A DNA stretch of 64,000 nt, taken from Promethearchaeia archaeon (lineage in GTDB: Archaea > Asgardarchaeota > Lokiarchaeia > Sigyniarchaeales > SOKP01). Below the pieces are notes generated by a model. The model saw only the letters and a program-made list of their open reading frames with translations. It did no database searches and was not told the DNA's origin. Each line of letters starts with the position of its first letter. Position 1 is the first letter of the stretch. Below, piece after piece: positions 23,775 to 47,555 of this stretch. The position numbers and the translations under genes are program-made. The stretch covers positions 128,001 to 192,000 of the forward strand of contig JAHQWG010000028.1 in the NCBI GenBank assembly GCA_029856045.1, given 5' to 3'.

Positions 23775-24329
23775 TTATAAATAACGAATTTCAGGTTCAA
23801 TTTTCTCCCTTGACAAAGTTAAAAACCCATATGAGTTAATATCCGTAAATTTCTTATCAGTTGGGGTTCCGGGATTAATGAAATATTGATTATCAACCTT
23901 CTCGGTTAATGGCTTGTGTATGTGTCCAAATAATATAATGTGATATTTTTCCAAATCAATATGTTTCTTTAAACGTCGAATCACCATATTAGGACCACCC
24001 CAACCATGTAATAATAAAATGTTATATCCATACGCAGTTAATTCTATGCGTTCAGGCAATTTAGAATTTATCTTCGAATCATCCATATTCCCCCTAATTC
24101 CAATAACTTTATCCCTTCCAAATATATCTTGCAAGCCTTCATACACGCTATAATCCGTAAAGTCACCCAAATGAAATACATAATCCACCTCCTTATCTAA
24201 AAAATCATCAATAATTACTTTAGGAATTTCTGCACATCGAGAAGGGATGTGAGTATCTGCTATCAAACCAATAAAAATTTCATCTTTACTATCATCAATC
24301 ATAAGAAGATACCCAACTTTTGGACTCAA
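23775..24329 (-). CDS. YfcE/MJ0936/Vps29-family metallophosphoesterase
   Basis: ADTHIP, HLGD, RGNMD, LHG, GHIH, INPGT motifs; probable ATG start near 24302. Confidence 0.9.
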   Translation of the reverse strand: MSPKVGYLLMIDDSKDEIFIGLIADTHIPSRCAEIPKVIIDDFLDKEVDYVFHLGDFTDYSVYEGLQDIFGRDKVIGIRGNMDDSKINSKLPERIELTAYGYNILLLHGWGGPNMVIRRLKKHIDLEKYHIILFGHIHKPLTEKVDNQYFINPGTPTDKKFTDINSYGFLTLSREKIEPEIRYL

Positions 24330-24478
24330 TTTTTGAGATATCTTATTAGTAGAAATTATTTAAATACTTTAAACAATATTAAATTAATATAATTTAATTA
24401 ACATTAATTTAAGAGAATTCTTATAAATTATATAACAATCTTTCTTTATCAAAATTAATAGAGGAAATTTATTTAATA

Positions 24479-24486
24479 GGAGAGGA
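24479..24486 (+). promoter_or_regulatory. Shine-Dalgarno-like GGAGAGGA ahead of the ATT start of the small GTPase
   Basis: GGAGAGGA followed by TTAAAT and in-frame ATT at 24493. Confidence 0.6.
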
Positions 24487-24492
24487 TTAAAT

Positions 24493-25113
24493 ATTCCAAG
24501 TCGTCGCGGAGATGGAACACTTGTATTCAAAGTTGTATTCTGGGGTCCCTCTTTAGGAGGGAAAACTACTGCTTTAGAATGGGTTTACAAGAAGGAGGGG
24601 CTTGCTTCAGGTGATATGCAGCAAATAGCTGACCCAACTGGAAGAACCCTCTTTTTTGACAGAGTTGTCGCTCGAGTAAGCAATGTAGTTTTTCAAGTAT
24701 ATACCGTTGCTGGCCAGAGACGCCATAAGTTCCAGAGACGAACGGTCCTCAAAGGAACTGACTGCATCCTCTTCTTTTGGGACAGTTTAATCGACCAGTG
24801 GGAAGAAAATATATGGAGTTTAAAAGAATTATTACAATTTTATGGAGATAAATTAATTTCTAAAAGTTTTTCTGACCCAGCGGAAGTTCCACTCGTTGTT
24901 TGTGCAAATAAACGTGATTTAGAAGATATTGTAGAGATAAATAAGATTCGCGAAGTTCTTGATAAAGCTAAGTTAAATCAAACGTTGGTCTATGAAACGA
25001 TCGCAATTACCGGAGTTAATGTGAAGCGAGGATTTGTTTATGCTGCACGCCAGGGGGTGCTAAATCATTATAAAAAACTTCAGGGCGAAGTGTCCGAGCA
25101 AGAGACTGCGTAA
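24493..25113 (+). CDS. MglA-like small GTPase (Ras superfamily); real start upstream of the called ORF, probably ATT
   Basis: In-frame extension reads IPSRRGDGTLVFKVVFWGPSLGGKTT (P-loop) before the called ATG at 24616; RTLFFD, TVAGQ, NKRD, ETIA motifs. Confidence 0.88.
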   Translation: MPSRRGDGTLVFKVVFWGPSLGGKTTALEWVYKKEGLASGDMQQIADPTGRTLFFDRVVARVSNVVFQVYTVAGQRRHKFQRRTVLKGTDCILFFWDSLIDQWEENIWSLKELLQFYGDKLISKSFSDPAEVPLVVCANKRDLEDIVEINKIREVLDKAKLNQTLVYETIAITGVNVKRGFVYAARQGVLNHYKKLQGEVSEQETA

Positions 25114-25139
25114 AATTTTAATTTTGTATTTGGGTTAAT

Positions 25140-27338
25140 TTAGATTATTTCTTGAACAATTTTATTTATTTCATCTAAAATATTGCTAATTTTTTCTTTT
25201 ACTTTTATTACGCTAATTTTTTCATCTTTTTGGATAATATCATTTACTTTTTCTTCTGATTTCATACCAATCTTTGATAATTTTTGATGATTAGAATTGT
25301 TGGGATCAAATTCAGGTATGGAGAAATCAAATGGTCGTTTATGAATATGGCGACTACTTTTTACAATCTTGATATTTTCACTAAGGATGGGTGCATTTAA
25401 AATACTTGTTAAATAATAGGCTTCTTCCTTGTAATTAGTTGAGAAATAATAATTTTCAGAACAAATAATGATTTTTTCTATCTCATTATTAATTACTGCA
25501 GATTTTATATTGGAACCGCTTGCGTTGTAAACTACTAGAAATTTTTTATTTGAATTTTGTTTGCTTAATTTATTCCAATAGTTTAGATTATCAAAAAGGG
25601 TGTTAATATTGCTTGTTCCTTTCTTGAATTTCTTGTAGGAATTATTAATTTTATTATAAAACTTTTCTCCGTAAGGAAGTTTTTCAAGGTATTTCTTAGA
25701 GAAATTTAATTTATCGTTAACAGGAAGAAAAATATTTCTTATTTTTTTTATGTAAAATGGAACGAGATCTTTATTCAAAAATGTTTTAAAATGAAAATTA
25801 TTTTCAATTAATTCTTCTTTAAAAAAATTTTTATTCCAAGGTGGTTTGGCTTGTTTTATTGAGTTTATATCAGGAGAAATTATTAAAATATTATCAGATT
25901 CCTGAACACCAACTATACAAAAATAAGTTAAAGCTCGAGGGACTAATGTAGCTCCTTGAAAGAATCTTTTTTTGTAATAGCTTGTTGAGAACTTTTTTAA
26001 TTTATGGTATTGCTCACTTGGAATAATAGATTTTGCACCTTGTTCGCTTATCTCAACAGAGAAATAATTGGTTTCTTTAATTAAATTCAAATTTTGGTCA
26101 AATATTTTTGCAGGAATTGGATATTTACTTTCAATTAAAGTTTTAGATATACTATTAATCTTATTTTGGGAATAATCAAATTTTGATTTGAGTATTATGA
26201 AATCCATATTAAAAAAAGTATATTTTTCAAAATCCCAGATTTCTAAATCATAGAAAAACTTGAAAGCTCGAAATTTTAAGCAGTGATCACCGGTTAAGAC
26301 GCTTTTAGTTAAGATTAAAAAAATAGTTCCATTATTTTTTAGAAATAATTTGGGGGTCTGGTAAAAAAATAATGAGGCTATCTCGATATGAGTAATATAT
26401 TGACTCTTAGGTTTTATTCCCAATCTATCTGCTAAATTTCTAAGATTAATTTGATATTTTTTATCATTTACATCTTTATATGTTAACCATGGAGGGTTTC
26501 CGATTATTAAATCAAATTTATTTTTAAAATCTTGATATGGAAATAGGAAATCATCTGTAGGATTTAATGGATCAAATCGATAAAAATTGACGGTAGGCAA
26601 AAAGTCCTCTAAAATATTATATATATCTTGAATATTTAAAAGGAAATTTGCAGTAGTTACTAAAATTGCTATTGGGTTTATGTCTAATCCGTAAATATTG
26701 TTTAAATTTTTTATTTTCTCTTTATTATTTAGGTCAGAATTTAGTATTATTTTTATTATTTCCATTAAAAACATACCTGAGCCACATGAACAATCAAGAA
26801 CTTTCATGCCTAATGAATAAGCATCTTCAATCATCAATATAGCTAGGTTTTTTGGAGTGAAATACTCTCCTTTTTCATGTCGAGCAGATTGATTAATCAT
26901 TTCTTGATAAATATGAAAAAATAAATCTTCATTTGAAATTTTATAATTCCCTATTTGATCTACGATTAAATTAGTAAATGAATCAGCATTGGAAAGCCAA
27001 TTGAATATCTCATTTATTTTTAAATGCTTTAATTTTTTATTAAATATTTCTTTTGTTTTATTTTTTTCTTGAATATTATGTAATTGTCTCTCTATGAAAT
27101 GTAAAATAATGGTCTTTACTAAATAATATAGATATGTATGGTTTAGGAATAGTTGGTGTGTTAGATTTTGTGATTTATATAATTTTTCAAAAGATTTCTT
27201 CCATTTGTTAAAATAAAAATCATAAGTTTTTCTTGATTTTCTTTTTGATTGATTTAAGTATTTAATTGAATTTTGAAAAAAAGCAGATTTATTTCCAAAC
27301 AATGTTGAGAGTTTTCTTGAATCTATAATAGAGTTCAT
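25140..27338 (-). CDS. N6-adenine DNA methyltransferase (type IIG/Eco57I-like MTase + TRD region)
   Basis: GEYFTP, motif I VLDCSCGSGMFL, GLDINP, motif IV IIGNPPW, C-terminal TRD-like region; no recognisable N-terminal nuclease motif. Confidence 0.88.
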   Translation of the reverse strand: MNSIIDSRKLSTLFGNKSAFFQNSIKYLNQSKRKSRKTYDFYFNKWKKSFEKLYKSQNLTHQLFLNHTYLYYLVKTIILHFIERQLHNIQEKNKTKEIFNKKLKHLKINEIFNWLSNADSFTNLIVDQIGNYKISNEDLFFHIYQEMINQSARHEKGEYFTPKNLAILMIEDAYSLGMKVLDCSCGSGMFLMEIIKIILNSDLNNKEKIKNLNNIYGLDINPIAILVTTANFLLNIQDIYNILEDFLPTVNFYRFDPLNPTDDFLFPYQDFKNKFDLIIGNPPWLTYKDVNDKKYQINLRNLADRLGIKPKSQYITHIEIASLFFYQTPKLFLKNNGTIFLILTKSVLTGDHCLKFRAFKFFYDLEIWDFEKYTFFNMDFIILKSKFDYSQNKINSISKTLIESKYPIPAKIFDQNLNLIKETNYFSVEISEQGAKSIIPSEQYHKLKKFSTSYYKKRFFQGATLVPRALTYFCIVGVQESDNILIISPDINSIKQAKPPWNKNFFKEELIENNFHFKTFLNKDLVPFYIKKIRNIFLPVNDKLNFSKKYLEKLPYGEKFYNKINNSYKKFKKGTSNINTLFDNLNYWNKLSKQNSNKKFLVVYNASGSNIKSAVINNEIEKIIICSENYYFSTNYKEEAYYLTSILNAPILSENIKIVKSSRHIHKRPFDFSIPEFDPNNSNHQKLSKIGMKSEEKVNDIIQKDEKISVIKVKEKISNILDEINKIVQEII

Positions 27339-27463
27339 AGTAGAATTGAATTAAAATTTGCTTTAATATATAAATAAATCTTGTTCCTAATAAAAACAGA
27401 TGAAATTATTAATTTAAATTTAGGAATTAAATGATATGTTTTAAAAATCTTTTTTTATGGGCA

Positions 27464-27994
27464 TTACCTCATAAAAGATGGAAGCATATTCGAGAAGATC
27501 TGTTCAATTCTCACTAATTTTTTTTTTTCTTTAACAAGAGTTCCTATTAAAATAGAATTAGTTAATTCTTTTTTTACCAAAGATGCTGCACTGAATACAA
27601 CTTCTTTTTCATTCATAACTAAGAGACATTTTACATTAGGGTTATTCACAATACTTACATTGGATTTTGTTTTTAAGTTATCGTAGTATTGTTGAAATTC
27701 TTGTGGGATAAATCTTCTGTCATTAATTATCATAAGTACAGGGATTCCCTTTTTAGCTACACTTAAAATATTTTCAGAATAGAAAGGTCCAATTTTTGGG
27801 GTTATTATTTTTAAACTAGATACAGTTGAGTTTATAACTGATAAAATTTTCTCATTTAGTGCTTCTTTTTTACCTTCAATTCCAGATGGAAAAAGATCAA
27901 TCAGACCGACAATGGAGATAATTTTTTGTTCGAGTTCATTTACCTTATCTCTTAATTTAGTATTTTCTAATCTTAATTGTGATATTCTATCCAT
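27464..27994 (-). CDS. Coiled-coil + degenerate PLD-superfamily (HKD-less) domain protein
   Basis: N-terminal coiled coil; LKIITPKI..SVAKKGIPVLMII..; NVKCLLVMNEKEVVFSAASL resembles HxKxxxxD...GSxNL without the catalytic H/K. Confidence 0.55.
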   Translation of the reverse strand: MDRISQLRLENTKLRDKVNELEQKIISIVGLIDLFPSGIEGKKEALNEKILSVINSTVSSLKIITPKIGPFYSENILSVAKKGIPVLMIINDRRFIPQEFQQYYDNLKTKSNVSIVNNPNVKCLLVMNEKEVVFSAASLVKKELTNSILIGTLVKEKKKLVRIEQIFSNMLPSFMR

Positions 27995-28078
27995 ACAAAT
28001 TTCCTTGTTTTTTATTTTATTTATTATGTTTTATTAATTTTGAATATTTAAATTATTTTTGTTTCTCTGGTTAACAAT

Positions 28079-30652
28079 TTATTCAAGCATTTTCCAGGGC
28101 TTTCCGAAAAGAAGAAATGAATTAAAAGCAATGATTGATTCTACATTTATGTCTTGTTGTATATCTATTTCTTTTTGGTCAACATTTGACGCCACCTTAT
28201 TTAGAAGAATTTTTTGTCGTGCTTTCAATACAGAAATTCCTTGACTAAACCCATCAGTTAGATTATTATATATATTTGAAATTAATTGCCTTGTATTATC
28301 GTTAAAATCGTATAAAATTCTTATAATAATTCCAGTTATCTCGTTTTGATCGAAATTTTGAATTATCTTAGAAATAACCTTTAAAATTGATGGTAATTGA
28401 TCTCCCAAAAGATTGAATATACGTACATTAAAGAAAATGAATGGTTTTTTGCTAGTAGTAGTCTTTTTTATAGCATAATTAATATCTGAAATAGAAACTG
28501 TTTGATAATCATTAGTAATAAAATAACTATTTTTTGGATTCTCGGTTGAATAAAATAAATTTCCAATGATATGAATGATGTCATTAGTGCCTGAGATTAT
28601 ACTATTTAAAACATTTTCTCGGGTTAAATTTTCTTGTATGTAATATTCCATATGGTCAACGAAAGAAGATTCACTGAAATATTGGATAATATGATTTAAC
28701 TCATTTACACCTTCATTAAAGGGATACATTAACACATTATTTTTTGTGGCATCATCCCATTTTGATGGAAGCATTAAATTTAAACTCCCAAAAGTTAATA
28801 TATTAAATTTTTGTTTCGATTGATCTAAAGGCAAAATAGGTATGTTCGAATTAATTCCTCTTAAATCAGGTTCTCCTAGAGAGTATCCAATAGGATATTT
28901 CAAAGAAAAGAATCCAGACCCATCGTGGATTAAATCAAACGGTATATTTATTTTATCAAGTATTAAAAATATGTGAGGAATATGATCTGTACAATCTTGT
29001 TTCAATTTTAAAAATATATTTCTAAGTTTTTTTGGAAGAGATAAATACAGAAGTTTTCCAAAATCTACAAATGTTATATCTTTTTCAACTTCTATATTCC
29101 AAAAAAGATCATTATAAATTTTAATTAAATAAGCGTCGTTCCAATATTCATCAACAATTATATCTTGAAATTCTTGTGAATCCTCGAATTTTCCAAAATA
29201 ATTTATTTTCCCATTATCTCTAATTCTTATTGAGAGATATTCGATTTTCAGATTCTCTTTTTCGTCGAATAGATTAAATAATCCTTCATCTTGTTGATCG
29301 AAAAAAGTCATATTTTCAAGTTCCTGAGAATATTCATTTGGAAATTCTTGTAAATTTGTCAATAATGGTTGTATTTTTTTGGATAAAAATTTATTTATAT
29401 TTTCGCTTAAATTTATATCCTGTTCTTCAAAAAATGCTCTATAAAACATTGAATTCCAAAATTCAAATTTTTCAGGTGTAATAAATTTAGTTTTTAGCCT
29501 CCAAATAAAATTATAGACATAAAAGTAATGCACTATTTGTTTAGCATTTGAAGGAGTTGAAATATTTTTTTGTAATTCTTCTAATGATCTCAAAAGATAT
29601 TTTTTTTCTTTTAGATCTCTAAAATTTTTGCAAGCGTCAGCCCAATGTTCAATTAAAAGAAAATTATATTTATTTTTATAGAATTCTTTAAAATAATTCC
29701 CTAAAAACTTATATAAATTAAATGATATCTCAAATCGATTTCTTTTTAGTAAAAAATATAAGTATTTCTTTATATAATCAACAGCATCATCTAGGGAATT
29801 GAATTGAATAATCTTAAGAAAAATATTCTCAATTAAACTCAATATCCAGCTAGATTCTCCGATATCATTCAAATACATCAATAAATTTTCTAAATCTGAG
29901 AAGATCTCATTAAAATTTGTTTCATTTATTTTTATTTTTGATAAATGAGAGAATTCACTTTTTAATTCAGGGCGTAATTTATCTACCATAATATTATTTA
30001 TCTCTTTTACAAATTCTTCAGAATTCTCCTTTAATTGAAATGAGATTCCAATATTTTCTATAAAAACATATAGTAATAAGGTTCTTTTAGTAGGCTCAAT
30101 TTTTTTTAGAAATTCCCATAAAAAATTTACAGAAAAATAATATATTGATGATGGAGAAACTGATTTATTAAGGTAAATGGATAGAATTTGGTATTTAAGT
30201 AATTCATGATAATTTCCTTCATCTTTCATAATGTTTGAAAGAGAGTTTAGTAATTTTATTAAACCATTAATTGAAACGTCTGGTTGATTAATATAAGATT
30301 TGATAAGATTTTTTCCGTGATTTAGTAATTCATAATATTTGTTTTGTTTAGCCAAAAAACCAAAATAACGATTATAAGAATCATAATATTTTATAACGTC
30401 AAAAATTGAGCCCTCGTCGGTTTGTTGAATTAGAGACTGCAAATATTTATCCCAAGAATTATTTAAAATTTCATTTAATTGGTCTTTTTTTTGAAGGTTT
30501 ATCCAATCTGCCTTTTGAATATCAAAATATAGCTTTGTGAATAACTTATCTGCCCATTTATGATTTCCTAACTTTAACAATTTTCGACCTTGGATTATTT
30601 GCTGTTCAAAATTCTTGAAAAACTCTTGGTTTTTTTCATTTTGAGAACTCAT
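28079..30652 (-). CDS. Alpha-helical solenoid + CHAT (caspase/HetF-like) domain protein, apparently inactive
   Basis: FGKLLY..LP, NIPFDLIHDGSGFFSLKYPIG, DIIHIIGN, FIFFNVR, VLKARQ, FLLFGKP match the CHAT layout; the N-terminal ~450 aa are helical. Confidence 0.75.
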   Translation of the reverse strand: MSSQNEKNQEFFKNFEQQIIQGRKLLKLGNHKWADKLFTKLYFDIQKADWINLQKKDQLNEILNNSWDKYLQSLIQQTDEGSIFDVIKYYDSYNRYFGFLAKQNKYYELLNHGKNLIKSYINQPDVSINGLIKLLNSLSNIMKDEGNYHELLKYQILSIYLNKSVSPSSIYYFSVNFLWEFLKKIEPTKRTLLLYVFIENIGISFQLKENSEEFVKEINNIMVDKLRPELKSEFSHLSKIKINETNFNEIFSDLENLLMYLNDIGESSWILSLIENIFLKIIQFNSLDDAVDYIKKYLYFLLKRNRFEISFNLYKFLGNYFKEFYKNKYNFLLIEHWADACKNFRDLKEKKYLLRSLEELQKNISTPSNAKQIVHYFYVYNFIWRLKTKFITPEKFEFWNSMFYRAFFEEQDINLSENINKFLSKKIQPLLTNLQEFPNEYSQELENMTFFDQQDEGLFNLFDEKENLKIEYLSIRIRDNGKINYFGKFEDSQEFQDIIVDEYWNDAYLIKIYNDLFWNIEVEKDITFVDFGKLLYLSLPKKLRNIFLKLKQDCTDHIPHIFLILDKINIPFDLIHDGSGFFSLKYPIGYSLGEPDLRGINSNIPILPLDQSKQKFNILTFGSLNLMLPSKWDDATKNNVLMYPFNEGVNELNHIIQYFSESSFVDHMEYYIQENLTRENVLNSIISGTNDIIHIIGNLFYSTENPKNSYFITNDYQTVSISDINYAIKKTTTSKKPFIFFNVRIFNLLGDQLPSILKVISKIIQNFDQNEITGIIIRILYDFNDNTRQLISNIYNNLTDGFSQGISVLKARQKILLNKVASNVDQKEIDIQQDINVESIIAFNSFLLFGKPWKMLE

Positions 30653-30702
30653 ATTTTTATTAACTCAACTAAAACTAATTAAAATTAATTATATTTGACA
30701 CT

Positions 30703-31905
30703 TCAATCTTCATCTACTTCGTTAGAAGGAGGTTGGGATATAACCTCACCATTTTGATTTTTATTTTGAAAATTTGGATTTTCAATCCATCCTTTCGTAA
30801 TTAATCCACGAGAATATAAAATAGAGGCTCCAATCCAACCCATATCATCTCTTCCTGTTGGTGTAATAACCTTAATTTCATCTCTGATTTTTTCGGAAAA
30901 AAACTTACCAACTTCCACTTTTAATCTTTTACCAAGATCTTTAATTAGGCTAGTTCCGCCACAAAGAATAATATTTTGGAGTAATTCCAACCAATCATTC
31001 CTATTCCATGTTTTAACAAGATCTGCAATCATTTTTGGTAATTCTATAATATCCAAATGAATTCGATTTGGATTGAATAAAGGTTCGGGAATCATTATTC
31101 TTTCATAATTAATCGTAAAAATACATCCATCAGGTAGTTGAATTTCTTGGTCAAAAGAACTTAACCCTTCTTCAATTTTTTTTTTAGTTTCTTTAGGATT
31201 AAAAACACATATTGAAGATCTATCTTTTATTTCTCGTGCAATCCATTTATCTATATAATTTATTTTGTATTTCTTATTAAATAATATTAAATCCATAAAA
31301 TATTCAGTAAGATCCTTTCCTGCAATTGGAAAAAAGTCGCGAGCTGAGAAATTACTAAATCCATGTAAATATGTTGAAACAAACGAATTTTGCTCTCCTA
31401 GATTGATAACAACCCCTGTATTTTTACCTATGGCAGATAAAACACAATCAGAAAAAGTAAGAAAATTAATTTGGGGGAAATTTAATTCATCTAAAAATAT
31501 CTGTTGCATTTTTTTTTTATCATTCTCTGAACTAGTAAAAGGAAATAAAACAATTAATGGCTGTTGGAAAAAAAAGTTCTGTTCTATTCCCAATTGATGA
31601 TAATAATATAAAAAGAATTTTTTCAAGACGTTATAATTTTTTTCTATTACAAATTGATGATTATTCAAAATATCTTTATATTTTAACGCTTCAGACCCAT
31701 ATAGATGTTTTTCTGTATTCTTAGAAATAACAATATCCTTTAATCCTGAAATATTATCTGATTTATATATGGGATCTGTTATATCCGTATATATACTTGG
31801 AACTATAATATCGGGAAGATCGTCTCCCGCAAAACCTAACCGAAAATTAGCAGAACCTATATCTAAGATTAGGGGACGCAAAAACTCTTCTTTCTCATTT
31901 TCCAT
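30703..31905 (-). CDS. Actin-related protein (Asgard ARP)
   Basis: PLILDIGSANFRLGFAGDDLP..IVPS, YGSEA, TGVVINLG, IAGKDLTEYF, AREIKD, LPDG..I..ER...PE.LF.P, NIILCGGTS, WIGASIL. Confidence 0.93.
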   Translation of the reverse strand: MENEKEEFLRPLILDIGSANFRLGFAGDDLPDIIVPSIYTDITDPIYKSDNISGLKDIVISKNTEKHLYGSEALKYKDILNNHQFVIEKNYNVLKKFFLYYYHQLGIEQNFFFQQPLIVLFPFTSSENDKKKMQQIFLDELNFPQINFLTFSDCVLSAIGKNTGVVINLGEQNSFVSTYLHGFSNFSARDFFPIAGKDLTEYFMDLILFNKKYKINYIDKWIAREIKDRSSICVFNPKETKKKIEEGLSSFDQEIQLPDGCIFTINYERIMIPEPLFNPNRIHLDIIELPKMIADLVKTWNRNDWLELLQNIILCGGTSLIKDLGKRLKVEVGKFFSEKIRDEIKVITPTGRDDMGWIGASILYSRGLITKGWIENPNFQNKNQNGEVISQPPSNEVDED

Positions 31906-32017
31906 AATATTTTATATGCAATTTATCCTTAAAAAAACCTTGTTATTACACCAAAAAAACTGTGAAATCCGTGGTTTTTAGGAGAACTAAGAAATATTAA
32001 TTAATTAATTCTAAACT

Positions 32018-32710
32018 CTATGAAGGTTTAAGTAAAAGCTCCGAAACTTCTTTTTTTAATTGATATTCTTGAATCTGTAATTCTAGAAGGCCTAATATTT
32101 TTTTAAAATCTTTCGAAATTACCCCAAAATTAGTGTTTGAAATTTTTTCAATTTCATTGCGCTTTATTTCAAAATCAGTTAATCCTTTTTGTGTTTTTGC
32201 AAGTAAATTTTCTATCGAATTTATCAGCTGTTCTGTGTTTTTTTTGGTTATTTTTCTCATTTTTCGTAAAATAGATAAAATCATTCCAGTAGAATTCTCC
32301 CATCTTGTGTATCTATCACTAAAACTATTAAATAATTCTGTAAAAAAAAGATTCATATTCTCATATAAATTCAATTCTTCTCTATGGGGTGTTGTTGGTA
32401 AATCTTCAATTTCTTTAAAATCCTCTAAAACCTCGATCTTTATACCGGACTCTTCAGATATCGTTTTATTATCCTGACTAGTTTCAGATGTCAATTGTGG
32501 GGTTATCTCGATATTATCATTTTTCTCATTTGCAGTTTCTTCAGTTTTTGACTCCGCTTTTCCTCCCATAAATTCTTCTAAAGCTTTTTTACTATCTTTA
32601 CTTTTTTTCAAAGCGGTCTCTAAAAAACTAAGTCCATCTTGCTTTACTTCTGGCTCACTTAAATCTTCATCCTTTTCTGATTTTTCTTTCTTAACCTTCT
32701 TCTTAGCCAT
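32018..32710 (-). CDS. Hypothetical protein: charged disordered N-terminus + C-terminal coiled coil
   Basis: K/E-rich low-complexity first ~110 aa, then heptad-like helical region. Confidence 0.8.
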   Translation of the reverse strand: MAKKKVKKEKSEKDEDLSEPEVKQDGLSFLETALKKSKDSKKALEEFMGGKAESKTEETANEKNDNIEITPQLTSETSQDNKTISEESGIKIEVLEDFKEIEDLPTTPHREELNLYENMNLFFTELFNSFSDRYTRWENSTGMILSILRKMRKITKKNTEQLINSIENLLAKTQKGLTDFEIKRNEIEKISNTNFGVISKDFKKILGLLELQIQEYQLKKEVSELLLKPS

Positions 32711-32745
32711 AATAATTCATAATTTTTTTAAAATTCTTTAAAAAT

Positions 32746-33147
32746 CTATTCAATTATCTCAATTTTCTGAGCATTACCTCTTTGAATTAATGTTTCAATT
32801 ACATTATCAATATTTAAACCATCAGGAATAGGTGCAATCACATTCCATATCGCTAATTTTCCTTTCTCAATAACGATTGCTTCACCGTAAATAAGAGAAA
32901 TATTTAATTCACCTATGGTTTTTGCAATTAGTGCTAATGAACCCGCAACATCATTCATATAAATTTTTAATTTAACAGTGTCTTTTTCTCCAGTCCAACC
33001 TACGGGATAGATTCGAATTTCTTTCTTCTCACTATCTGCTATCATCATTATTTGGGTTGCATCCTCGATCCCTAACGATTTTCGGAAGATATTTGGAATT
33101 ACTATTCTTCCTCTTGTATCAATATTGAGAATTCGTGCTTCTTTCAT
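32746..33147 (-). CDS. AbrB/MazE/SpoVT DNA-binding domain + ACT domain regulator
   Basis: IDTRGRIVIPNIFRKSLGI (AbrB); DVAGSLALIAKTIGELNISL (ACT). Confidence 0.9.
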   Translation of the reverse strand: MKEARILNIDTRGRIVIPNIFRKSLGIEDATQIMMIADSEKKEIRIYPVGWTGEKDTVKLKIYMNDVAGSLALIAKTIGELNISLIYGEAIVIEKGKLAIWNVIAPIPDGLNIDNVIETLIQRGNAQKIEIIE

Positions 33148-33232
33148 ATGTGCTTCTTTCCAAAATTTTTGTAAAATCTTAATTTATTAATAAAAAATTC
33201 TCAAAACTTGTTTAAAAATATTACTTAATCAT

Positions 33233-36200
33233 TCATATTTTCTCTTCTTTTTGCTTTCTTAATAAGAGATATAAAATAATAACGACTGTAATTATTAGCG
33301 GAAAAAACACTGCCAAAGGGTTTCCTCCTGTTAAATTATTGAGGGCTAAAGAAATTGTAAACAAAGCGGCAATTAAAGAGATAACTGATCCATATTGACT
33401 GGCAACGAATCTTAATCTATTAAGGATCTCATAAAATTTGAAGTTTGTGGTTTTAATAACTTTTAACTTAGCAGGATTTAAACTATCAATAATTTCAGGA
33501 TTCTCATAATATAACTGAAGTTCAGGGTCATATTTTCCTGGTAAAGCATTTTCACCAATCAATGTGATAATATATGTTTGGATTTTATCTTTTTTAATTT
33601 TAAGTTCGCGCGCCAAAAAAGATATTGTTATATATTCGTCTTTAACCGCTTTAATAACAATTTTTACATAACTTTTAAGTATTAATTGCTCTAATTTTTT
33701 AATTTTCTCATTAATTATCTCATCATACTCATGCAGAAAATGTTTAAAATCGTCAAAAAGAAATTTATTTTTTGTATTGAATGTAGGAGATGATTTTTTG
33801 AATTCTTTTTTAAGTTTAGATGTTTCGTTTTCAATATATTTTAATCTTTCACGTATTTTTTTTACCCTTCTTTGAACCATAATACTTGTAGATTTAAAAT
33901 CTTTAATTTCTAATTTGTCTTCAACTTTTCGTTCTAAGGATCCAAGCATTTGATTAAGTATAACCTGGTTTCTATTTATAAAATGCATCAAATCTTCTTT
34001 TAAAGCGTCATTTTTAATCAAGTCTAATTTTTTTGATAAATTTTCCTTAAATTCTTCAAATTCTTTATTAAATTGATGCTTCTTAAAAACAAGTTCTTCT
34101 CGAATTTCAGAATTTGATATTTTTAAACTTTCATTCTCTACCATCATGGTACTAATTTTTTGTTCAATCTCATTCAAAGAAATTTTCCTAGTTTCTGATA
34201 ATTTTAAGATTTTACCGCTAAAATTATTTATAAGTTTATCATAATCGTTTATTTTTTCAGCTTCGTCTTGAAATAATTTATTTAATTCCCGTAATTGGAT
34301 TCTTAAAGAGTTGAATTCTTCACCGATGAAACTTACAAGTTGATTAAAAATTATTGTATTTTTGTTAATTTCATTAATAATATTCCTATATCTATTAAGT
34401 TCAGTATTAAAAAAATTTTTATTCGCTATGAAATCATCTCTATTTGTATTTATTCCAATTTTTAAAATTTCATTTTGGTAACTTCTTTCTAAATTTAATT
34501 GCTGGTTATTAAATTCTTCTATTCTATTTTGAATTTCTAAAACATTAACTTTAAGAGATTTATTTTTTATTGCAGATTCATATAGAGATACTAATTTTCC
34601 GAAATTATTTCCTAATTTCTCTATTTGTTTTTCTATAAAATTTCTCAATTGTTTATTCTTATAATAGTTATCTGTGAATACAAGGAGTTCCTTGTTATTT
34701 TCATCCAATTCTCCATCTAATTTTGTAATTTCTATCATTTCATTGATTCTTTCGATCAATATATTACATTTTAGATTTAATTTTTTCTTTAAATCATCCA
34801 GTTTTATGAGATTTGTATGGGATTGCGAGGTATTTGACAGAATCTCTTGTTTAATAATCTCATTTGTATATCTATTTTTTAAATCATTCAAATTATTTTT
34901 AAATAGATCTATGAATTTATTCCATGATAACATACATAACTTTGATTTCTCTTGAAAATCTACTACAATTTTAGCAAGTTCTTTTACTTTATCTTTAACT
35001 TTTTCATTGAGATCTGAATAATTTTTAGAAAGTTCAGCAATTCGAGATTTTAAATTGGCGATTTTAAGTTTTTGATAATTTAAATCTTTCGCACATTCAT
35101 TTTCTTTCTTTCTTAATTGTTCTTCTAAAATGGAAATATTGCTTTTTATAAAATTATCAAATTCTTTTAATTTCTCAAGTTCCCGTTCTTGAATAACTTT
35201 ATCTTCAATAGAATTTCGATAATTATCAAATTTCTCAATTATTTTCTGCTCTAATTTATTCCAATCCTCTTGAATTTTTTTTAGAAGTAGAAAAAGTTTT
35301 CTCTTACTCTTCAAATGTTCCTTTAATTGAGATTGGGATTTTTTAATTAATTCTAATTTTTCATTTAAAAGCTTCTCAGTTTTTTCTTCAATAATTTCCA
35401 GTGCCAGTTGATATTTTTTTTCCTTTAAGATTAAATCAACTGTGTTTTTGAGTTCATTAATCATCATAGAAGTACTTTGTTCTATTTCCTTTATTTCATT
35501 TTTATCATTTTCATAAATCTTAAATCCTTCTAGGAAATAATCAATAAATGTATCTGCATCTTCTTTAATTGATATCCATTTTGAGATAACCTTCTTTTGC
35601 GTTTTTTGAATGGATTTTTCTTTAGAAGTAATTTTATGTGATATTTTATAGATTTGCGTATCTAATTTCGTGATTTCTGAATTAAGATGTTCGCAAACTT
35701 TTAATAATTGTTGAACAATTCCATTAGAATATGATTTCTCTAGGGATTCTCTAAATAAATTTTTAAAGTGGTCAATTAAAGAATAAATCTTTTGTTCATT
35801 TTTATCAATTAAATCTTCTAACTTATTCAAAATTAATTTGAAATTTTTTAGATTTTCTTTTTCCTTGAAAATTTCATTAAAATAATTTTGTAAATTAAAA
35901 TATTTGCCTCGAATTTCTGAATAATTCTTGTTCCATTCCACTATCTCATTGGATAACTGATAATTTGGATTTATGTATTTAAAATCTGTAGAAAAGGAAT
36001 TTTCAATATTTTCATTTAAAAAATCGGCTTCCATTAAAGCATTTTTTACATTATATTTTAACCTTTCTCTTGCTAAATCGAATTCATTTACAAGTATTAA
36101 GCTTTTAATCTCTTCTTTAATCTTTTTTGGTGTATCTTTTAATTTGATTATTATATTATAAATATCTGTTTTTATTTCCTCCAATTTAAATTTTTCATTA

Positions 36201-37663
36201 ATTATTTCTTCGCTATTTATATTAGAATCAATTCTAATTACTTCAGAAATAAATTTGTCTTTATATAGATAATATTTGCTAAAAAAAATCATGTTTTTCC
36301 GAAGAATTCGACCTAGGAAAAAGTTGTGCGAAATTAAATCTTCTGTTAGAAGGATCAAATCCCTAATTTTTTTTGGCTTATTTGGGTAATTGTATTTGTA
36401 GTCATTCAGAAGTTTATTTAAATAGATAACGCTATTATTTTTTATCGATGCATATACTGATTTAGCTAAATATGCATTTTCTCGGGTTAAATTTCTTAAA
36501 TAATTATTAAATTCAATTTCATTATCTAAAATCTCCAAATTAAAGTTGTATTTCTGATTAATATGTCTGAGAATTTCTGGTATTCCCTCATTTATTCCTA
36601 ACTCTTTTTTTAAAATATTTAAGTCTAAAGAAGTATTTATATCAAAATGTCTAAAAGCAGTTCTCTCAACTTCTTCAATAAATTTAGACCAAATAAATGA
36701 GCACATTAAAATAATTTTCGAAATATCCATTAATTTCAAGGTATTAAATGAACTATAATCATGATTTAAGCCTTTAATTTTCGTTGAGAGAAAAGAATAA
36801 ATCTTTCCACGATTGTAATCAAAGAACCAGGAATAATTTTCCAAAACATAAATAATCCAAAATGTTTCATTTATTTTCCCAACATTTTCCTTAAAACTAA
36901 AACCTCCATCATTTTGTTGAAATTGGTGTAAATATTTTAAGTGTTTAGTCTCAATATCAGAAATTAAATCAAAATATTTAAGACTAAGTAATTGAAATAC
37001 TATGGAATATTTCTTTTTTAAATCATTAAAATATTTTAAAAACACATTTTGTTCTAATTTGATATCAAAATCTAGAAGAATCAATGCTTCTATTACGAAA
37101 AAACTTGTTCTAATAGGCGTTGTTTTTTGGCAAATTGTACAATTTTTGTTTAAACAATGAATAAAACGCCCTTTATCTCTGGTCTTATAAATAAAATTAA
37201 TAATCTTTTCTTTTATATTTTCTCTTGAATGTGTAGATAAATAGGCATCTAATTGTCCTAATAAATTTAAACTGGCTAAAGCAAAAAAGGTTGACCAATT
37301 ATCTGGTTTTCTCTGTTTAGATTCAGGGGAAAACTTAAATCCTAGGGAATTTTCTTCAAAAATTTCACATCCTGTTATGAAATTAATGATCTTTTTGAGA
37401 TTTATAGATATATCTTCCCTCAAATATTTCCCCAATAAAAGAAACCAATATATATTCTCTAAATTCAGATTTCTGAAATTTAATAATTTTTTTTCAAAAA
37501 AACGATAAATTTTCACAATCTTATCATATTCAGGTATAAAAAAACTTCCTATATCGTCATCTATGGCAAAAGTAAATGATCTAAACGGCTTCTTTTTGAA
37601 TACCGTTACATACGGATAGGCAGAATTATCTTTTACCTTTGCCATGTTATTGTGCTCAACCAA
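33233..37663 (-). CDS. Giant membrane-anchored protein: prenyltransferase/squalene-cyclase-like alpha-alpha repeats, long coiled coil, PCI-like winged helices, two C-terminal TM
   Basis: IINFITGCE...GFKFSP..PDNWSTFFALASL, YLHQFQQNDGGFS..INETFWII; extensive heptads; ITISFLARELKI...IITLIGENALPGKYD; terminal hydrophobic hairpin. Confidence 0.8.
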   Translation of the reverse strand: MVEHNNMAKVKDNSAYPYVTVFKKKPFRSFTFAIDDDIGSFFIPEYDKIVKIYRFFEKKLLNFRNLNLENIYWFLLLGKYLREDISINLKKIINFITGCEIFEENSLGFKFSPESKQRKPDNWSTFFALASLNLLGQLDAYLSTHSRENIKEKIINFIYKTRDKGRFIHCLNKNCTICQKTTPIRTSFFVIEALILLDFDIKLEQNVFLKYFNDLKKKYSIVFQLLSLKYFDLISDIETKHLKYLHQFQQNDGGFSFKENVGKINETFWIIYVLENYSWFFDYNRGKIYSFLSTKIKGLNHDYSSFNTLKLMDISKIILMCSFIWSKFIEEVERTAFRHFDINTSLDLNILKKELGINEGIPEILRHINQKYNFNLEILDNEIEFNNYLRNLTRENAYLAKSVYASIKNNSVIYLNKLLNDYKYNYPNKPKKIRDLILLTEDLISHNFFLGRILRKNMIFFSKYYLYKDKFISEVIRIDSNINSEEIINEKFKLEEIKTDIYNIIIKLKDTPKKIKEEIKSLILVNEFDLARERLKYNVKNALMEADFLNENIENSFSTDFKYINPNYQLSNEIVEWNKNYSEIRGKYFNLQNYFNEIFKEKENLKNFKLILNKLEDLIDKNEQKIYSLIDHFKNLFRESLEKSYSNGIVQQLLKVCEHLNSEITKLDTQIYKISHKITSKEKSIQKTQKKVISKWISIKEDADTFIDYFLEGFKIYENDKNEIKEIEQSTSMMINELKNTVDLILKEKKYQLALEIIEEKTEKLLNEKLELIKKSQSQLKEHLKSKRKLFLLLKKIQEDWNKLEQKIIEKFDNYRNSIEDKVIQERELEKLKEFDNFIKSNISILEEQLRKKENECAKDLNYQKLKIANLKSRIAELSKNYSDLNEKVKDKVKELAKIVVDFQEKSKLCMLSWNKFIDLFKNNLNDLKNRYTNEIIKQEILSNTSQSHTNLIKLDDLKKKLNLKCNILIERINEMIEITKLDGELDENNKELLVFTDNYYKNKQLRNFIEKQIEKLGNNFGKLVSLYESAIKNKSLKVNVLEIQNRIEEFNNQQLNLERSYQNEILKIGINTNRDDFIANKNFFNTELNRYRNIINEINKNTIIFNQLVSFIGEEFNSLRIQLRELNKLFQDEAEKINDYDKLINNFSGKILKLSETRKISLNEIEQKISTMMVENESLKISNSEIREELVFKKHQFNKEFEEFKENLSKKLDLIKNDALKEDLMHFINRNQVILNQMLGSLERKVEDKLEIKDFKSTSIMVQRRVKKIRERLKYIENETSKLKKEFKKSSPTFNTKNKFLFDDFKHFLHEYDEIINEKIKKLEQLILKSYVKIVIKAVKDEYITISFLARELKIKKDKIQTYIITLIGENALPGKYDPELQLYYENPEIIDSLNPAKLKVIKTTNFKFYEILNRLRFVASQYGSVISLIAALFTISLALNNLTGGNPLAVFFPLIITVVIILYLLLRKQKEEKI

Positions 37664-37769
37664 ATAATTATTTGTTGCAAAATCTAAATTAGATATAAAA
37701 AATTTAAAATAAAAAATTATTGTAAAAAAAATTCAAGTATTGTTTATTAAAGGAAAAATTTTAATCTTT

Positions 37770-38492
37770 TCAAACAATTTTTCCCGCAATTACTTTAATA
37801 CCCTGCTTTACAATTTGCTCATAATTATTTTGTGTAATTTCCAAGCAAATAATCATTAACTCGTCGTAGTTCCTATTAAATTGATACTTGTATAATTCTG
37901 CCTTTTTAATAAGTTGATAAGCGTCTCTATTGTCTGCATGGAATTTTATTTCAATTAAAATCGTTTTATTGTTCTGAATCAATATATCGATATCAGTTGA
38001 ATAATTTTCCCAAAATACTTTACCTTCTTTATCATTTAGTTTTTCTTTTTTAATTTCACTTGTATTTATACTTTCTTGAATTAAATTATCATTTAAGAAG
38101 TATAAAATAGCATTTTCCAACCCTATACCGCCTCGACGTCCTAACGAGTTTATAGAAGCTTGTAACTGGACTCTTTCTTCTCTGGCTATTTCAAAACCCT
38201 TATTCATCTCTTTAATTAATGCTTCAAAACGATTATCTACGGCTTCAAATCGCTTATCTACGGCTTCAAATCGGTTATTCATTTGCTCTTGAAGGGTTTC
38301 GAATCGTTTATCCATGGCTTCAAATCGCTTATCTACGGCTTCAAATCTTCTGTCGGAATGTTCAATAATTCTTATAATATCTTCTTTTGTAGCAACTACT
38401 CCAGAGAGCGCAGTTATTATTGCACCCTTTATCTCGTCGTCTTCCCTTATTAACTTTGGTAAAAGTTTTAACAACTCGTTTTTATCGATCAA
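37770..38492 (-). CDS. Heptad-repeat coiled coil + PD-(D/E)XK nuclease-like domain (DUF3782-like archaeal family)
   Basis: VATKEDI, (RFEAVDK)n repeats, LGRRGG, DIDILI..ILIEIKF; TTG start with GGAG RBS. Confidence 0.85.
   Translation of the reverse strand: MIDKNELLKLLPKLIREDDEIKGAIITALSGVVATKEDIIRIIEHSDRRFEAVDKRFEAMDKRFETLQEQMNNRFEAVDKRFEAVDNRFEALIKEMNKGFEIAREERVQLQASINSLGRRGGIGLENAILYFLNDNLIQESINTSEIKKEKLNDKEGKVFWENYSTDIDILIQNNKTILIEIKFHADNRDAYQLIKKAELYKYQFNRNYDELMIICLEITQNNYEQIVKQGIKVIAGKIV
38221..38350 (-). repeat. Intragenic 21-bp tandem repeats encoding RFEAVDK heptads
   Basis: Repeated ggcttcaaatcgcttatctac-like units on the + strand. Confidence 0.9.
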
Positions 38493-38723
38493 TTTTATTC
38501 TCCAGTTAATAATATAAAATAAGACTTATATTTTTAAATATATCTGCTCAAAGAAGTTATAATAGTCATCTAAAATTTTAAGAATTGCTGCAATAATATT
38601 CGGTTTCAAGAATAAAATTATTAAAATTAGGAAAAACGCAAAAAATCGTAAGATAATTAGTTCTGTTTATTTTTTTAATTTATTTAATAATATTTTTAAT
38701 TTTTAATAATTACTATTTTTATT

Positions 38724-39767
38724 ATGGCTGAAAAACCTATTTTTGGAAATTGGCTCTCAATTGAAAAAATTAACTCTCTCGAGAAATATATTTTAGTCAC
38801 AATGGAAGAACCATGGAAAATTATAGAACCAAAAATCACACAAAAACCAATTTTCCTTAAATTTAATAATAATATGGCAATCGACCATTTAAAAGCATTA
38901 GCTTTGAGTTTTGACCCTAATATTTTAAAAAATTGTAGTTTAATAGGGATTGGTGGAGGAACATCTTGTGATACTGCAAAATTTTTAGCTTGGTATTTAA
39001 GAGATAAATTTGATTTAAATTTAGACTTACTATTGATTCCATCAATTATTTCTGTGGATGCCTTCTTATGTTCTTCAATTGCCGTAAGAATTAATAGTAA
39101 AGTAAAATATATTGGAGAAATCCATCCAAAAGAAATTTTGATCGATTATAATTTAATCCAAAGTGCTCCTCCATTTTTAAACAGAGCAGGAGTTTCGGAT
39201 ACAATTTCAATAATTACAGCGTTAGGAGATTGGAGACTCGCCAGAGATGAAATAAATGAAAAATTTAACCAAGATGTATTTAATCGAGCAAAAAAGATTG
39301 CTAAAAATTTAATGGAAGCAAGAACTGAAATTAAGGATGTGACAGAAAAAGGAATTAAAGCTTTAGTTGATGGTTTTTATAATGAAGTTGTACTTTGTGA
39401 AGAATGGGGGAATGCAAGGCCTGAAGAAGGAAGCGAACATTTTCTTGCATATTGCCTAGAATCAATTACTCATAAACATTATATTCACGGTAATTTAATT
39501 GGCATGAATATACTAATTAGTCTCTTTCTACAAGAAGAATATGCGGAATTTCCAATTGAAGAAATAAAACAATTTTTTGAATATATTAAAATAAATATTA
39601 CTCCTGAAAAGCAGCATATTTCTTATAATAATATTAGAAAAGCTTTAAAAAAAATTAAAAAGTATGTTATTTCCGAAAAATTACCTTATTCAATATATAA
39701 TTCCTCAAAATTAATCCTAAATAATAAAAAGATTGATGAAATCATTAAATTCTTAAAAGCAATTTAG
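38724..39767 (+). CDS. Glycerol-1-phosphate dehydrogenase-like protein (EgsA/AraM, DHQS/Fe-ADH superfamily)
   Basis: GIGGGTSCDTAK, IPSIISVDA, AGVSD.IS..TA..DW, RPEEGSEH, HG motifs. Confidence 0.8.
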   Translation: MAEKPIFGNWLSIEKINSLEKYILVTMEEPWKIIEPKITQKPIFLKFNNNMAIDHLKALALSFDPNILKNCSLIGIGGGTSCDTAKFLAWYLRDKFDLNLDLLLIPSIISVDAFLCSSIAVRINSKVKYIGEIHPKEILIDYNLIQSAPPFLNRAGVSDTISIITALGDWRLARDEINEKFNQDVFNRAKKIAKNLMEARTEIKDVTEKGIKALVDGFYNEVVLCEEWGNARPEEGSEHFLAYCLESITHKHYIHGNLIGMNILISLFLQEEYAEFPIEEIKQFFEYIKINITPEKQHISYNNIRKALKKIKKYVISEKLPYSIYNSSKLILNNKKIDEIIKFLKAI

Positions 39768-40017
39768 ATGGATATTTGATTTGATTAATAAATTCCGATT
39801 TAATCATATTTAAGCTCAGTTAAGTCGATCATCCACGGAAAAATTTTTTTATTATTATTGAAGTGTAATTTGACAATTTTTAACAAAATTAAATTACTGA
39901 TCTACTGACAAAAGTACATTACTACTAACAATAAAGGATAAATAAATTAAAAATAAAATAATCTTTAATTCACTTAATTAATAACTTTTATTGAATTTCA
40001 ATACAGAGGAAGAAATA

Positions 40018-41067
40018 ATGCAAAACTTAAAGGTTGGGATTATAGGTTCCGGTTTTATTGCTGAACATCATTGTTATGCATATAGTTTATTACCAAATGT
40101 GGAGTTGATGGCAATGTCTTCTTTATTAGAAAATAAGGCAAAAGAATTGATGAAAAAATATAACATACCTGGAAAGCCCTATAAAGATTATAATGAGTTA
40201 TTAAAATTGGATTTGGACGTTGTATCACTATGTATTCCTAATTTTCTCCATAAACAGGGTGCAATTGATGTTTTGAAATCGGGAAAGCATGTTTTTGTGG
40301 AAAAACCGTTAGCAAGAACCGTTGAAGAGGGTAAAGCAATGTTGATGGCTGCGAATAAAGCGAATAAACAAATTTTTTATTGTGAAAATAACATGTATGC
40401 GCCATCTTTTTCAAAGGTAAAAGAGATAATTGAAGAAGGTGCTTTAGGGAAAATATATATGGGAAGAGGAAAGGAACAGCATAGCGGCCCTCATTCTGCT
40501 TGGTTTTATAAAGCAGATAAAGCTGGAGGTGGATGTATATTAGATCTTGGAGTTCATGATGTTGCGTGTCTTATTTGGTATTTAAATTGTGAGGTAGAAA
40601 AGGTATTTTGCCAAACAACTATAACTCTGCCAGATAGAGGTGAGTTTGGAAAATGCAATGTAGAAGATAATGCTGTGGGGATATTGTATTTTAAAAATGG
40701 AGCACAGGTTGTAATTGAAGAATCTTGGACTGCTCCGGGAGGTTATAATATGAGATTTGAACTTTATGGCACTGATGGACAAATCATAGTTGATCCCTCT
40801 AGAAATAATCTTTGTGTTGTCTATAGCGAAAAAAGTTATGGATATGTAGTAGAAAAAGCTGGTTCAACTAAGGGATGGACATTTCCTGTCCCTGAAGAAG
40901 CTTGGGTATTTGGATATCCACAAGAAATAAAACAATTTACTAAATGTATTTTGGAAAATAAAAAACCACTAACAGACGGAGCTTATGGTCTAAAAGTTTT
41001 AAATATAATCGAAACATTGTATAAGAGCGCTAAATCTGGAAAAATTGAGTGGGTTCCATCTCTTTAA
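40018..41067 (+). CDS. Gfo/Idh/MocA family oxidoreductase
   Basis: VGIIGSGFIA, HVFVEKP, GGGCILDLGVH, VEDNA; ATG at 40018 with GAGGA RBS (track start 39991). Confidence 0.93.
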   Translation: MQNLKVGIIGSGFIAEHHCYAYSLLPNVELMAMSSLLENKAKELMKKYNIPGKPYKDYNELLKLDLDVVSLCIPNFLHKQGAIDVLKSGKHVFVEKPLARTVEEGKAMLMAANKANKQIFYCENNMYAPSFSKVKEIIEEGALGKIYMGRGKEQHSGPHSAWFYKADKAGGGCILDLGVHDVACLIWYLNCEVEKVFCQTTITLPDRGEFGKCNVEDNAVGILYFKNGAQVVIEESWTAPGGYNMRFELYGTDGQIIVDPSRNNLCVVYSEKSYGYVVEKAGSTKGWTFPVPEEAWVFGYPQEIKQFTKCILENKKPLTDGAYGLKVLNIIETLYKSAKSGKIEWVPSL

Positions 41068-41101
41068 GAAAAGATTAAGCTAAAAATTTATCTTTTTAAA
41101 C

Positions 41102-42310: not shown

Positions 42311-42404
42311 TGTTATTTCTCCTTATTATATTTAAATCCTGTAAAAAAGAATACTTAATAAAGGATATATAAGAAAAAAGATTAAATTAATTAATTATTT
42401 TAGT

Positions 42405-47529: not shown

Positions 47530-47555
47530 ATCTTTTAACCTCCTCTTCCTTCAAT

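Follow-up and report, generated by a model that had tools for sequence, protein, structure and literature searches.

The 64,000-nt stretch of DNA analyzed here (hereafter the window) spans positions 128,001–192,000 of the forward strand of contig JAHQWG010000028.1 (assembly GCA_029856045.1), part of a 3.34-Mb genome in 55 contigs from a Promethearchaeia archaeon (Lokiarchaeia; Sigyniarchaeales; SOKP01). It contains six co-directional genes, numbered g1 to g6 in order of transcription, the fourth of which encodes a divergent actin-related protein (ARP; Table 1). A preliminary description of the window had grouped all six as one operon. The open reading frames (ORFs) lie exactly where it placed them, all on the minus strand and separated by gaps of 85, 35, 112, 50, and 84 nt in the ORF list, and the methyltransferase and nuclease-like genes that it noted on the flanks are present as an Eco57I-type and a PD-(D/E)XK protein. 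Most of its fold assignments hold as well (toroid and PCI in g1, AbrB-ACT in g2, actin in g4, CHAT in g5, and phospholipase D (PLD) in g6), with the PCI match falling below the Pfam cut-off. Comparison with related genomes did not preserve the six genes as one unit: only g3–ARP–g5–g6 stays collinear across 20 genomes, and this four-gene core is the subject of our analysis. An Rfam scan of positions 24000–39000 returned nothing.

The synteny set comprised 20 ARP loci from 17 genera and three families (f1, f2, and f3), with 16 loci from f1. Gene order and strand of g3–ARP–g5–g6 were retained in 20/20 loci, so that the neighborhood conservation which the preliminary description had proposed as a check was found for the ARP core. 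Protein identity is ~90% within a genus, 40–52% within a family, and 22–30% between families, and dN/dS values of 0.17–0.27 relative to a sister species indicate purifying selection on all six genes of the window. The g5 gene starts 0–50 nt after the ARP gene, with a 4-nt overlap in L016 and L019. The flanks have been repeatedly reshuffled. Upstream, the usual genes in f1 encode YjeF, a 275-aa protein, Roadblock/LC7, and a 720-aa vWA protein, those in f2 a Hef-type helicase and a PHP protein, and g1 can also occupy this side; downstream stand the methyltransferase, a 405-aa gene, or others. The cluster is also present in a closed 6.04-Mb genome (G055).

The core is composed of two nested pairs. 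In G037, G040, and G044 (one genus) and in G042 and G046 (another), all of f2, g3 is followed directly by g6 (gaps of 17–111 nt), and neither an ARP orthologue nor g5 was found anywhere in these genomes. One of these short-form genomes is closed (4.36 Mb), and in G042 an AbrB-ACT gene stands in front of g3. No genome among 61 relatives encoded the ARP orthologue without g5, and the g5-only cases among them were remnants, fragments, contig-edge cases, or a divergent copy. In the sister species G001 (contig G001:C20), an in-contig deletion removed the whole ARP and g5 residues 1 to ~648. A 22-nt spacer there separates g3 from a 205-aa ORF corresponding to g5 residues ~650–857, followed by g6 and the methyltransferase as usual; this could represent decay in progress or an assembly fault in a metagenome-assembled genome. 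The ARP and g5 come and go as a unit inside the unit formed by g3 and g6, and on at least two separate occasions both disappeared (f2 genera and G001). Because f1, f3, and part of f2 have the long form, the simpler reading is that the short-form lineages lost the inner pair.

The two pairs also differ in range, that of g3 and g6 being wider than that of the ARP and g5. The distributions of g3 and g6 coincide (f1 32/36, f2 12/14, f3 1/1, and f4 0/4), and the pair is spread across one order of Lokiarchaeia. In a set of 400 genomes from the phylum, full-length g5 was confined to f1 (117/134), f2 (7/14), and f3 (1/1).

Table 1. Positions of the genes and loci discussed in the text.
Feature	Sequence	Position	Strand	Length	Content or remark
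g3	window	32018..32710	-	230 aa	Lys-tipped helical protein
g4 (ARP)	window	30703..31905	-	400 aa	divergent actin-related protein
g5	window	28079..30652	-	857 aa	TPR + caspase-like CHAT
g6	window	27464..27994	-	176 aa	zipper helix + PLD fold
g2	window	32746..33147	-	133 aa	AbrB-ACT
g1	window	33233..37663	-	1476 aa	alpha/alpha toroid + coiled coil + PCI-like + hydrophobic hairpin
Eco57I-type methyltransferase	window	25140..27338	-	732 aa	flanks g6 downstream
PD-(D/E)XK protein	window	37770-38492			flanks g1
21-nt tandem repeat	window	38221-38347			two runs within the PD-(D/E)XK/DUF3782 gene
Arf-like small GTPase	window	24493-25113	+		from ATT 24493
PD-(D/E)XK gene and sugar/amino-sugar block	window	37770-45986			between g1 and the FAD-binding/CCG pair
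FAD-binding/CCG pair	window	46222-49046			
Deletion locus, G001	L029	12463-13786			orthologous to window 28079-32710
Short form, G044	L040				g3 then g6
Short form, G037	L043				g3 then g6
Short form, G042	L041				g3 then g6
Short form, G040	G040:C372				g3 then g6
Short form, G046	G046:C12				g3 then g6
N6-methyltransferase, G004	L001	14990-17995	opposite to cluster	1001 aa	replaces the Eco57I-type gene
g6-like locus	L035	5590-8558			
g6-like locus	L037	2857-8588			
g6-like locus	L044	9890-12181			
g6-like locus	L045	9692-11838			
Helicase beside g1	L022	12136-14289			example of the usual g1 neighbor
Helicase beside g1	L026	12236-14440			example of the usual g1 neighbor

The g4 protein belongs to the actin family (Pfam Actin, PF00022, 1.4e-44; 152.8 bits against a cut-off of 27; residues 11–381). 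Three actin-family genes are present in the genome, scoring 443, 290, and 146 bits with the Actin profile, and g4 is the lowest and hence the most divergent. It shares 29% identity with the 443-bit gene. Lokiactin, the conserved Asgard actin, would be highly similar to actin and the best-scoring actin-family gene of its genome, which g4 is not. The phosphate-2 motif of actin is DSGDG, and the Gln137 position follows actin numbering. In g4 and its orthologues, the phosphate-1 (DIGS) and adenosine (GGTS) motifs are retained, phosphate-2 reads NLGEQ or NMGES (NLGEQ in the window protein), and Cys replaces the Gln137-equivalent in this genus. An altered phosphate-2 loop had been noted in the preliminary description. 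The top matches in the Protein Data Bank (PDB) were actins (~1e-33 to 1e-36), with no eukaryotic ARP closer than actin, and the protein matched the eukaryote-type Actin model, bacterial actin-like models being merely marginal. Orthologues show 44–52% identity in all 13 f1 genera and 27–31% in f3 and part of f2, and automatic annotation names them "actin-related protein" or "hypothetical protein". The study of Ca. Lokiarchaeum ossiferum reports four actin homologues, three of which are ARPs without assigned partners or function, transcribed at lower levels than Lokiactin (PMC9834061).

The gene adjoining the ARP on its downstream side encodes a solenoid joined to a caspase-like module. Structures of g5 and g6 were modeled from orthologue alignments (pLDDT 85 and 86, respectively). 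The g5 model comprises a tetratricopeptide repeat (TPR) solenoid (residues 1–447), a small middle beta domain, and a caspase-like CHAT module (~465–857). Foldseek ranked Csx29/TPR-CHAT (3e-11), the anti-sigma factor DdvA, and separase at the top. In VIA-align, residues 469–855 superimposed on Csx29 with Z 18.6 and a root-mean-square deviation (rmsd) of 3.7 Å over 285 residues, residues 454–857 on the SD-CD part of separase with Z ~16 and rmsd 4.0 Å, and residues ~600–857 on caspases and metacaspases with Z 11–15. At the sequence level, the Pfam CHAT match was weak (1e-3, below cut-off), and the g5 profile gave zero matches against PDB sequences. Among 34 orthologues, no conserved His or Cys column was found in residues 465–857. 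The nearest candidates were H694 (26/34) and the residue-815 column (Cys in 17/34), and the strands that carry His and Cys in the caspase fold end in IIHFVGN (698) and FFNxQ/R (745).

A second enzyme-derived fold is found in g6, whose model combines a leucine-zipper-like N-terminal helix (residues 3–27) with a PLD fold. Foldseek matches included NucT (4e-10, TM 0.67–0.74), Nuc (1e-7), TrmBL2/TrmB, Zucchini, and FAM83, whereas Pfam and NCBIfam profiles returned only noise. The HxK site reads N118-V-K, which departs from the HxK(x)4D motif, and no His column reached 50% in 21 orthologues. The missing catalytic residues of CHAT and PLD, first noted for the window proteins, are thus equally missing across their orthologues. 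The last six residues of g6, LPSFMR, are invariant across three families. Its partner in the outer pair, g3, consists of a Lys-rich tip (MAKKKVKK), a variable disordered linker, and a conserved helical C-terminal domain of ~115 aa, with invariant residues including F122, Y134, W137, and N158 in a 21-orthologue alignment. No Pfam family was found for g3, and its sole Atlas cluster is from Promethearchaeota.

A profile search of 1.84 billion representatives recovered distant g6 relatives of 178–202 aa that share the zipper and PLD-like build, give weak Regulator_TrmB matches, and carry a C-terminal or nearly C-terminal LP[STP]F[ML] motif. On other Asgard-like contigs and genomes, such g6-like genes adjoin Arf/Ras/Roc GTPases, coiled-coil proteins whose C-terminus is a winged helix, and a conserved 131–134-aa protein (52% identity between two contigs) that looks longin/roadblock-like by eye. 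Together with these neighbors they may form a second recurrent module, which we treat as a lead on the connections of the outer pair and not as evidence about the ARP. Three candidate relationships were rejected in this context: hhalign showed no relation of g3 to the coiled-coil/winged-helix proteins beside g6-like genes, g3 was likewise unrelated to the 131-aa longin-like protein, and the 788-aa gene ahead of the g6-like gene in L038 was unrelated to g5.

The resemblance of g6 to DNA-associated proteins and the identity of two part-time neighbors bear on an alternative in which the cluster is a DNA- or chromatin-associated ARP module, comparable to the nuclear ARPs of eukaryotic remodelers. 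Here, the ARP and g5 would be an accessory subunit, the g3 tip and the AbrB-ACT protein would bind DNA, and g6 would be a TrmB/TrmBL2-type PLD-like dimer lacking the winged helix. The AbrB-ACT protein (g2), single-copy in the window genome, gave weak Pfam matches to AbrB/MraZ, MazE, and ACT and matched NCBIfam PRK08577 at 4e-23; it is probably a DNA-binding regulator. Its gene precedes g3 in 15/16 f1 loci, at a distance of 5 kb in L014, whereas the contig of L015 stops at g3. The gene has the same position in f3 (L016) and the f2 genus g17 (L041) and is missing from the cluster in the other f2 loci, which make up most of f2. Within part of the order, g2 is likely to act as a local regulator.

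The methyltransferase is of the Eco57I-type gamma class (N6-adenine; Pfam Eco57I 4e-13), matched the methyltransferase part of type IIG enzymes in PADLOC, and has motif I (LDxSCGSG) and GNPPW invariant in 13 orthologues; judged by these motifs, it is an active enzyme and no pseudo-enzyme. It follows g6 on the same strand in 12/16 f1 loci and is absent in L004, L014, and L015 as well as in f2 and f3, making it a neighbor at the level of the family f1 only. In G004, it is replaced by an opposite-strand 1001-aa N6-methyltransferase, 31–32% identical, with a large insertion before NPPW. Beyond the methyltransferase lies an Arf-like small GTPase on the plus strand, whose translation from an ATT codon aligns from residue 1 on with 98% identity within the genus and 81–83% across genera. 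Alignment from residue 1 indicates that its coding sequence extends upstream of the first ATG (24616). Its orientation relative to the cluster is inverted in this genus compared with other genera.

A DNA-related role draws on the alignment of g6 with the archaeal chromatin protein TrmBL2 across helix and PLD fold (E 6e-9) and with NucT and Nuc, on the weak Regulator_TrmB matches and winged-helix neighbors of its distant relatives, on the Lys-rich tip of g3, and on the position of the AbrB-type gene upstream, of a putatively active methyltransferase directly downstream in f1, and of gyrB and gyrA close to the cluster. However, g6 offers no room for a winged helix before helix 3–27, has no TrmB Pfam match, and is without the HKD site through which Nuc-type enzymes act on nucleic acid. 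Neither the methyltransferase nor the AbrB gene is a universal member, the gyrase adjacency is family-specific, and a repeat scan of positions 24000–39000 found no repeat arrays, centromere-like sites, or tandem repeats of note in the intergenic DNA of the cluster. We regard a DNA-associated module as unlikely, though with some support.

The same parts list, with CHAT, PLD, methyltransferase, and PD-(D/E)XK components, could instead be read as an anti-virus or anti-plasmid defense island, the immunity role that the preliminary description offered as its alternative. CHAT proteases, PLD nucleases, and Eco57I/PglX-type methyltransferases are common in defense systems, g6 has a weak DrmC match (6e-4), the methyltransferase fits generic type II/IIG models in PADLOC, and the GC content of the block is 24% compared with ~30% in the flanks. 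Yet PADLOC returned no match for g1 to g5 and no system, and none of the orthologues has the protease dyad or the PLD His. The cluster is also single-copy and surrounded by housekeeping genes, is inherited vertically across an order with divergence tracking taxonomy, and has its PD-(D/E)XK gene from the g1 side of an inversion (see below). Vertical inheritance, dead sites, and the lack of a PADLOC system leave a defense function very unlikely indeed, the least probable of the readings considered here.

The inversion concerns g1, which the preliminary description had cast as a giant membrane-anchored tether within a single six-gene operon, holding the ARP complex at the membrane under ACT-dependent metabolite control. 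The g1 protein is real and conserved: it has a Prenyltrans match above the Pfam cut-off (2.6e-6), a PCI-like winged helix with a match below it (0.0024), a coiled coil of ~900 aa, further leads from the Atlas, and, read off the translation, two C-terminal hydrophobic stretches that form a hairpin. It is single-copy, and its orthologues are 35–40% identical in f1 and 25–30% in f2, falling to ~23% in further families of the class. Consistent with a six-gene operon are the shared strand and short gaps in this genome, the C-terminal hairpin, and the broadly similar ranges of g1, g3, and g6 (f1 to f3; not found in f4). The g1–g2 junction is also bridged by contigs of two independent metagenome studies (X14 over 28128–33613 and X5 over 32674–34371) and is no assembly error.

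Linkage, however, does not extend beyond the closest relatives. In all other genera examined, g1 is found on a separate contig or, as in the closed genomes G050 and G055, at a distance of >1 Mb from the ARP cluster, and the junction is absent even in the same-genus genomes G004, where g1 and the cluster lie on different contigs, and G002, being common only to G001 (L029). The usual upstream neighbors of the AbrB-ACT gene are Roadblock and vWA genes, and the vWA gene, its ancestral neighbor, is found on the opposite strand of this contig at a distance of 88 kb, the placement expected after an inversion. These positions fit an ~88-kb inversion with a breakpoint between vWA and AbrB-ACT that placed g1 here and is common to one sister species. 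The usual neighbor of g1 is a convergent DEAD/Helicase_C protein of 717–734 aa (9/14 g1 loci, two families), indicating that g1 normally stands alone. A conserved gene in its own right, g1 is not an ancestral member of the cluster, and the six-gene operon, largely refuted by synteny, is left with a very small probability.

Further features of the g1 side were recorded. In f2, a small CBS-pair protein is encoded just upstream of g1. In the window, the PD-(D/E)XK gene and a sugar/amino-sugar block (Fe-ADH/G1PDH-like, Gfo/Idh/MocA, DegT, ceramidase-PIG-L, and MFS genes) lie between g1 and a FAD-binding/CCG pair. This pair is ~220 nt from g1 in G004 and 1.5–2.7 kb away in other genera, and its proximity there suggests that the intervening block is an insertion or rearrangement specific to part of the genus. 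The PD-(D/E)XK/DUF3782 gene contains a 21-nt tandem repeat in two runs (2.8 and 2.4 copies) that gives the protein a repeated heptad-like segment. The C-terminal part of g1 was compared with a 411-aa coiled-coil/winged-helix protein of L044 and matched only by coiled-coil noise.

We favor a reading in which the four-gene core of two nested pairs acts as a non-catalytic ARP assembly, with a probability of about 55%. Joint action of the four proteins, probably as a non-catalytic assembly, is the strongest functional step, because gene order and strand are kept at 22–30% identity despite replaced flanks and the two inner genes disappear together. Of the ARP-containing complex in the preliminary description, a conserved module of dead enzyme-derived folds is supported and the g1 membrane tether is not. 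In such an assembly, the TPR-pseudoprotease g5 would hold the ARP in the manner of TPR-CHAT and separase with their protein partners, and g6 would dimerize through its zipper and PLD fold, like Nuc and TrmB-type PLD folds. Dead PLD folds of the FAM83 type act as protein anchors. The basic tip of g3 would link the assembly to membrane or nucleic acid. The ARP retains its phosphate-1 and adenosine motifs with altered hydrolysis residues, and may on this basis have a structural or switch function in its nucleotide-bound state rather than form filaments. Its most likely role would be the regulation or anchoring of the Lokiactin cytoskeleton, which we favor over a DNA-related role and which is the weakest step of the proposal.

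Several observations weigh against this assembly or its proposed role. Nothing in the module points to Lokiactin or to a membrane, and the AbrB protein, DNA methyltransferase, gyrase genes, and g6–TrmBL2 match would be just as compatible with a DNA-related role. Clearly, the outer pair functions in the absence of the inner one, and the LPSFMR tail of g6 is kept in genomes lacking the ARP and g5, so the tail is not dedicated to this ARP. All intergenic gaps are AT-rich and contain T-runs, leaving each with room for a promoter or terminator of its own.

Some of these points would also suit a simpler account, in which gene order is kept without shared function and the neighbors have merely not been separated so far. 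It draws on the room for a separate promoter at each gene and on outer genes that work without the inner ones in some lineages. Nevertheless, the retained order and strand at such low identity, while both flanks were reshuffled, and the repeated joint loss of the ARP and g5 make it improbable, slightly more so than a DNA-associated module.

A more specific version of the non-catalytic assembly, held only tentatively and at less than even odds, is that the cluster encodes the first dedicated archaeal ARP complex, with a hydrolysis-impaired ARP and the separase/Csx29-like pseudoprotease holding it as an optional module on an older adaptor of g3 and dimeric g6, through which the pair would be positioned in the cell. 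If true, related lineages would contain natural "long" and "short" forms of an ARP complex, and ARPs as subunits of multiprotein machines would have arisen in Asgard archaea with partners unlike the eukaryotic ones. Among the Asgard actin homologues other than Lokiactin, the cluster offers one ARP clade three concrete candidates for partners, and the natural loss of the ARP–g5 pair alone provides a ready-made comparison between lineages. The cluster also illustrates that caspase-like and PLD folds have been kept very long as catalytically dead scaffolds in archaea. Among the literature on Asgard ARPs, gene clusters, separase, or CHAT, we found no paper describing this cluster.

Comparison with known systems places the individual parts more readily than the whole. 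In structure, g5 comes closest to Csx29 of type III-E Craspase; both have TPR, middle, and CHAT domains in this order, and Csx29 works bound to a large partner. Unlike Csx29, g5 lacks the His/Cys dyad, and their sequence identity is ~10%; near the cluster, PADLOC gave no cas matches, including Cas7-11/gRAMP, and no CRISPR array was found in positions 24000–39000. Separase, which works with securin, likewise has a helical solenoid followed by a pseudo-caspase and caspase module. In contrast, g5 is about half its size and catalytically dead, with no evident relation to cohesin/kleisin or securin, and the similarity of the g5 model to separase would not by itself indicate common descent beyond the caspase-like protease clan. 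The PLD-like domain of TrmB/TrmBL2 and the DUF1669 domain of FAM83 resemble g6 in lacking the HKD His, and TrmBL2 also has a long helix ahead of its PLD fold. Unlike TrmB, g6 has no winged helix and is a stand-alone 176-aa protein with a family-specific LPSFMR end, and it lacks the CK1-anchor context of FAM83.

At the level of whole assemblies, a ParMRC cassette differs in that here no iterated repeats lie beside the genes, the ARP is of the eukaryote type, and the AbrB gene is not universal. Eukaryotic ARP-containing complexes include Arp2/3, INO80/SWR1 with Arp4–Arp8, and dynactin with Arp1–Arp11. They share with the cluster a divergent actin fold, altered hydrolysis residues, and apparently dedicated non-actin partners, whereas TPR-pseudoCHAT, pseudo-PLD, and g3 proteins are not known as subunits there; no ARPC1-5-type domains were detected in the neighboring genes, and the genome itself was not searched for ARPC homologues. 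The crenactin arcade of Thermoproteales (crenactin with arcadins 1–4; PMC5173319) is comparable by organization only, arcadin homology aside. The actin of the present cluster is a divergent ARP and not the main filament former, Lokiactin being a separate gene; its candidate partners, a TPR-pseudoprotease and a pseudo-PLD, are absent from arcade clusters; and the g6 tail persists without this ARP. In both cases, however, an archaeal actin is clustered with small partners that belong to no known family, and crenactin is regulated by a protein of its own cluster, arcadin-2, whose conserved C-terminal peptide follows a disordered linker and docks on the actin (PMC5173319), an arrangement to which the linker of g3 and the invariant tail of g6 may be compared.

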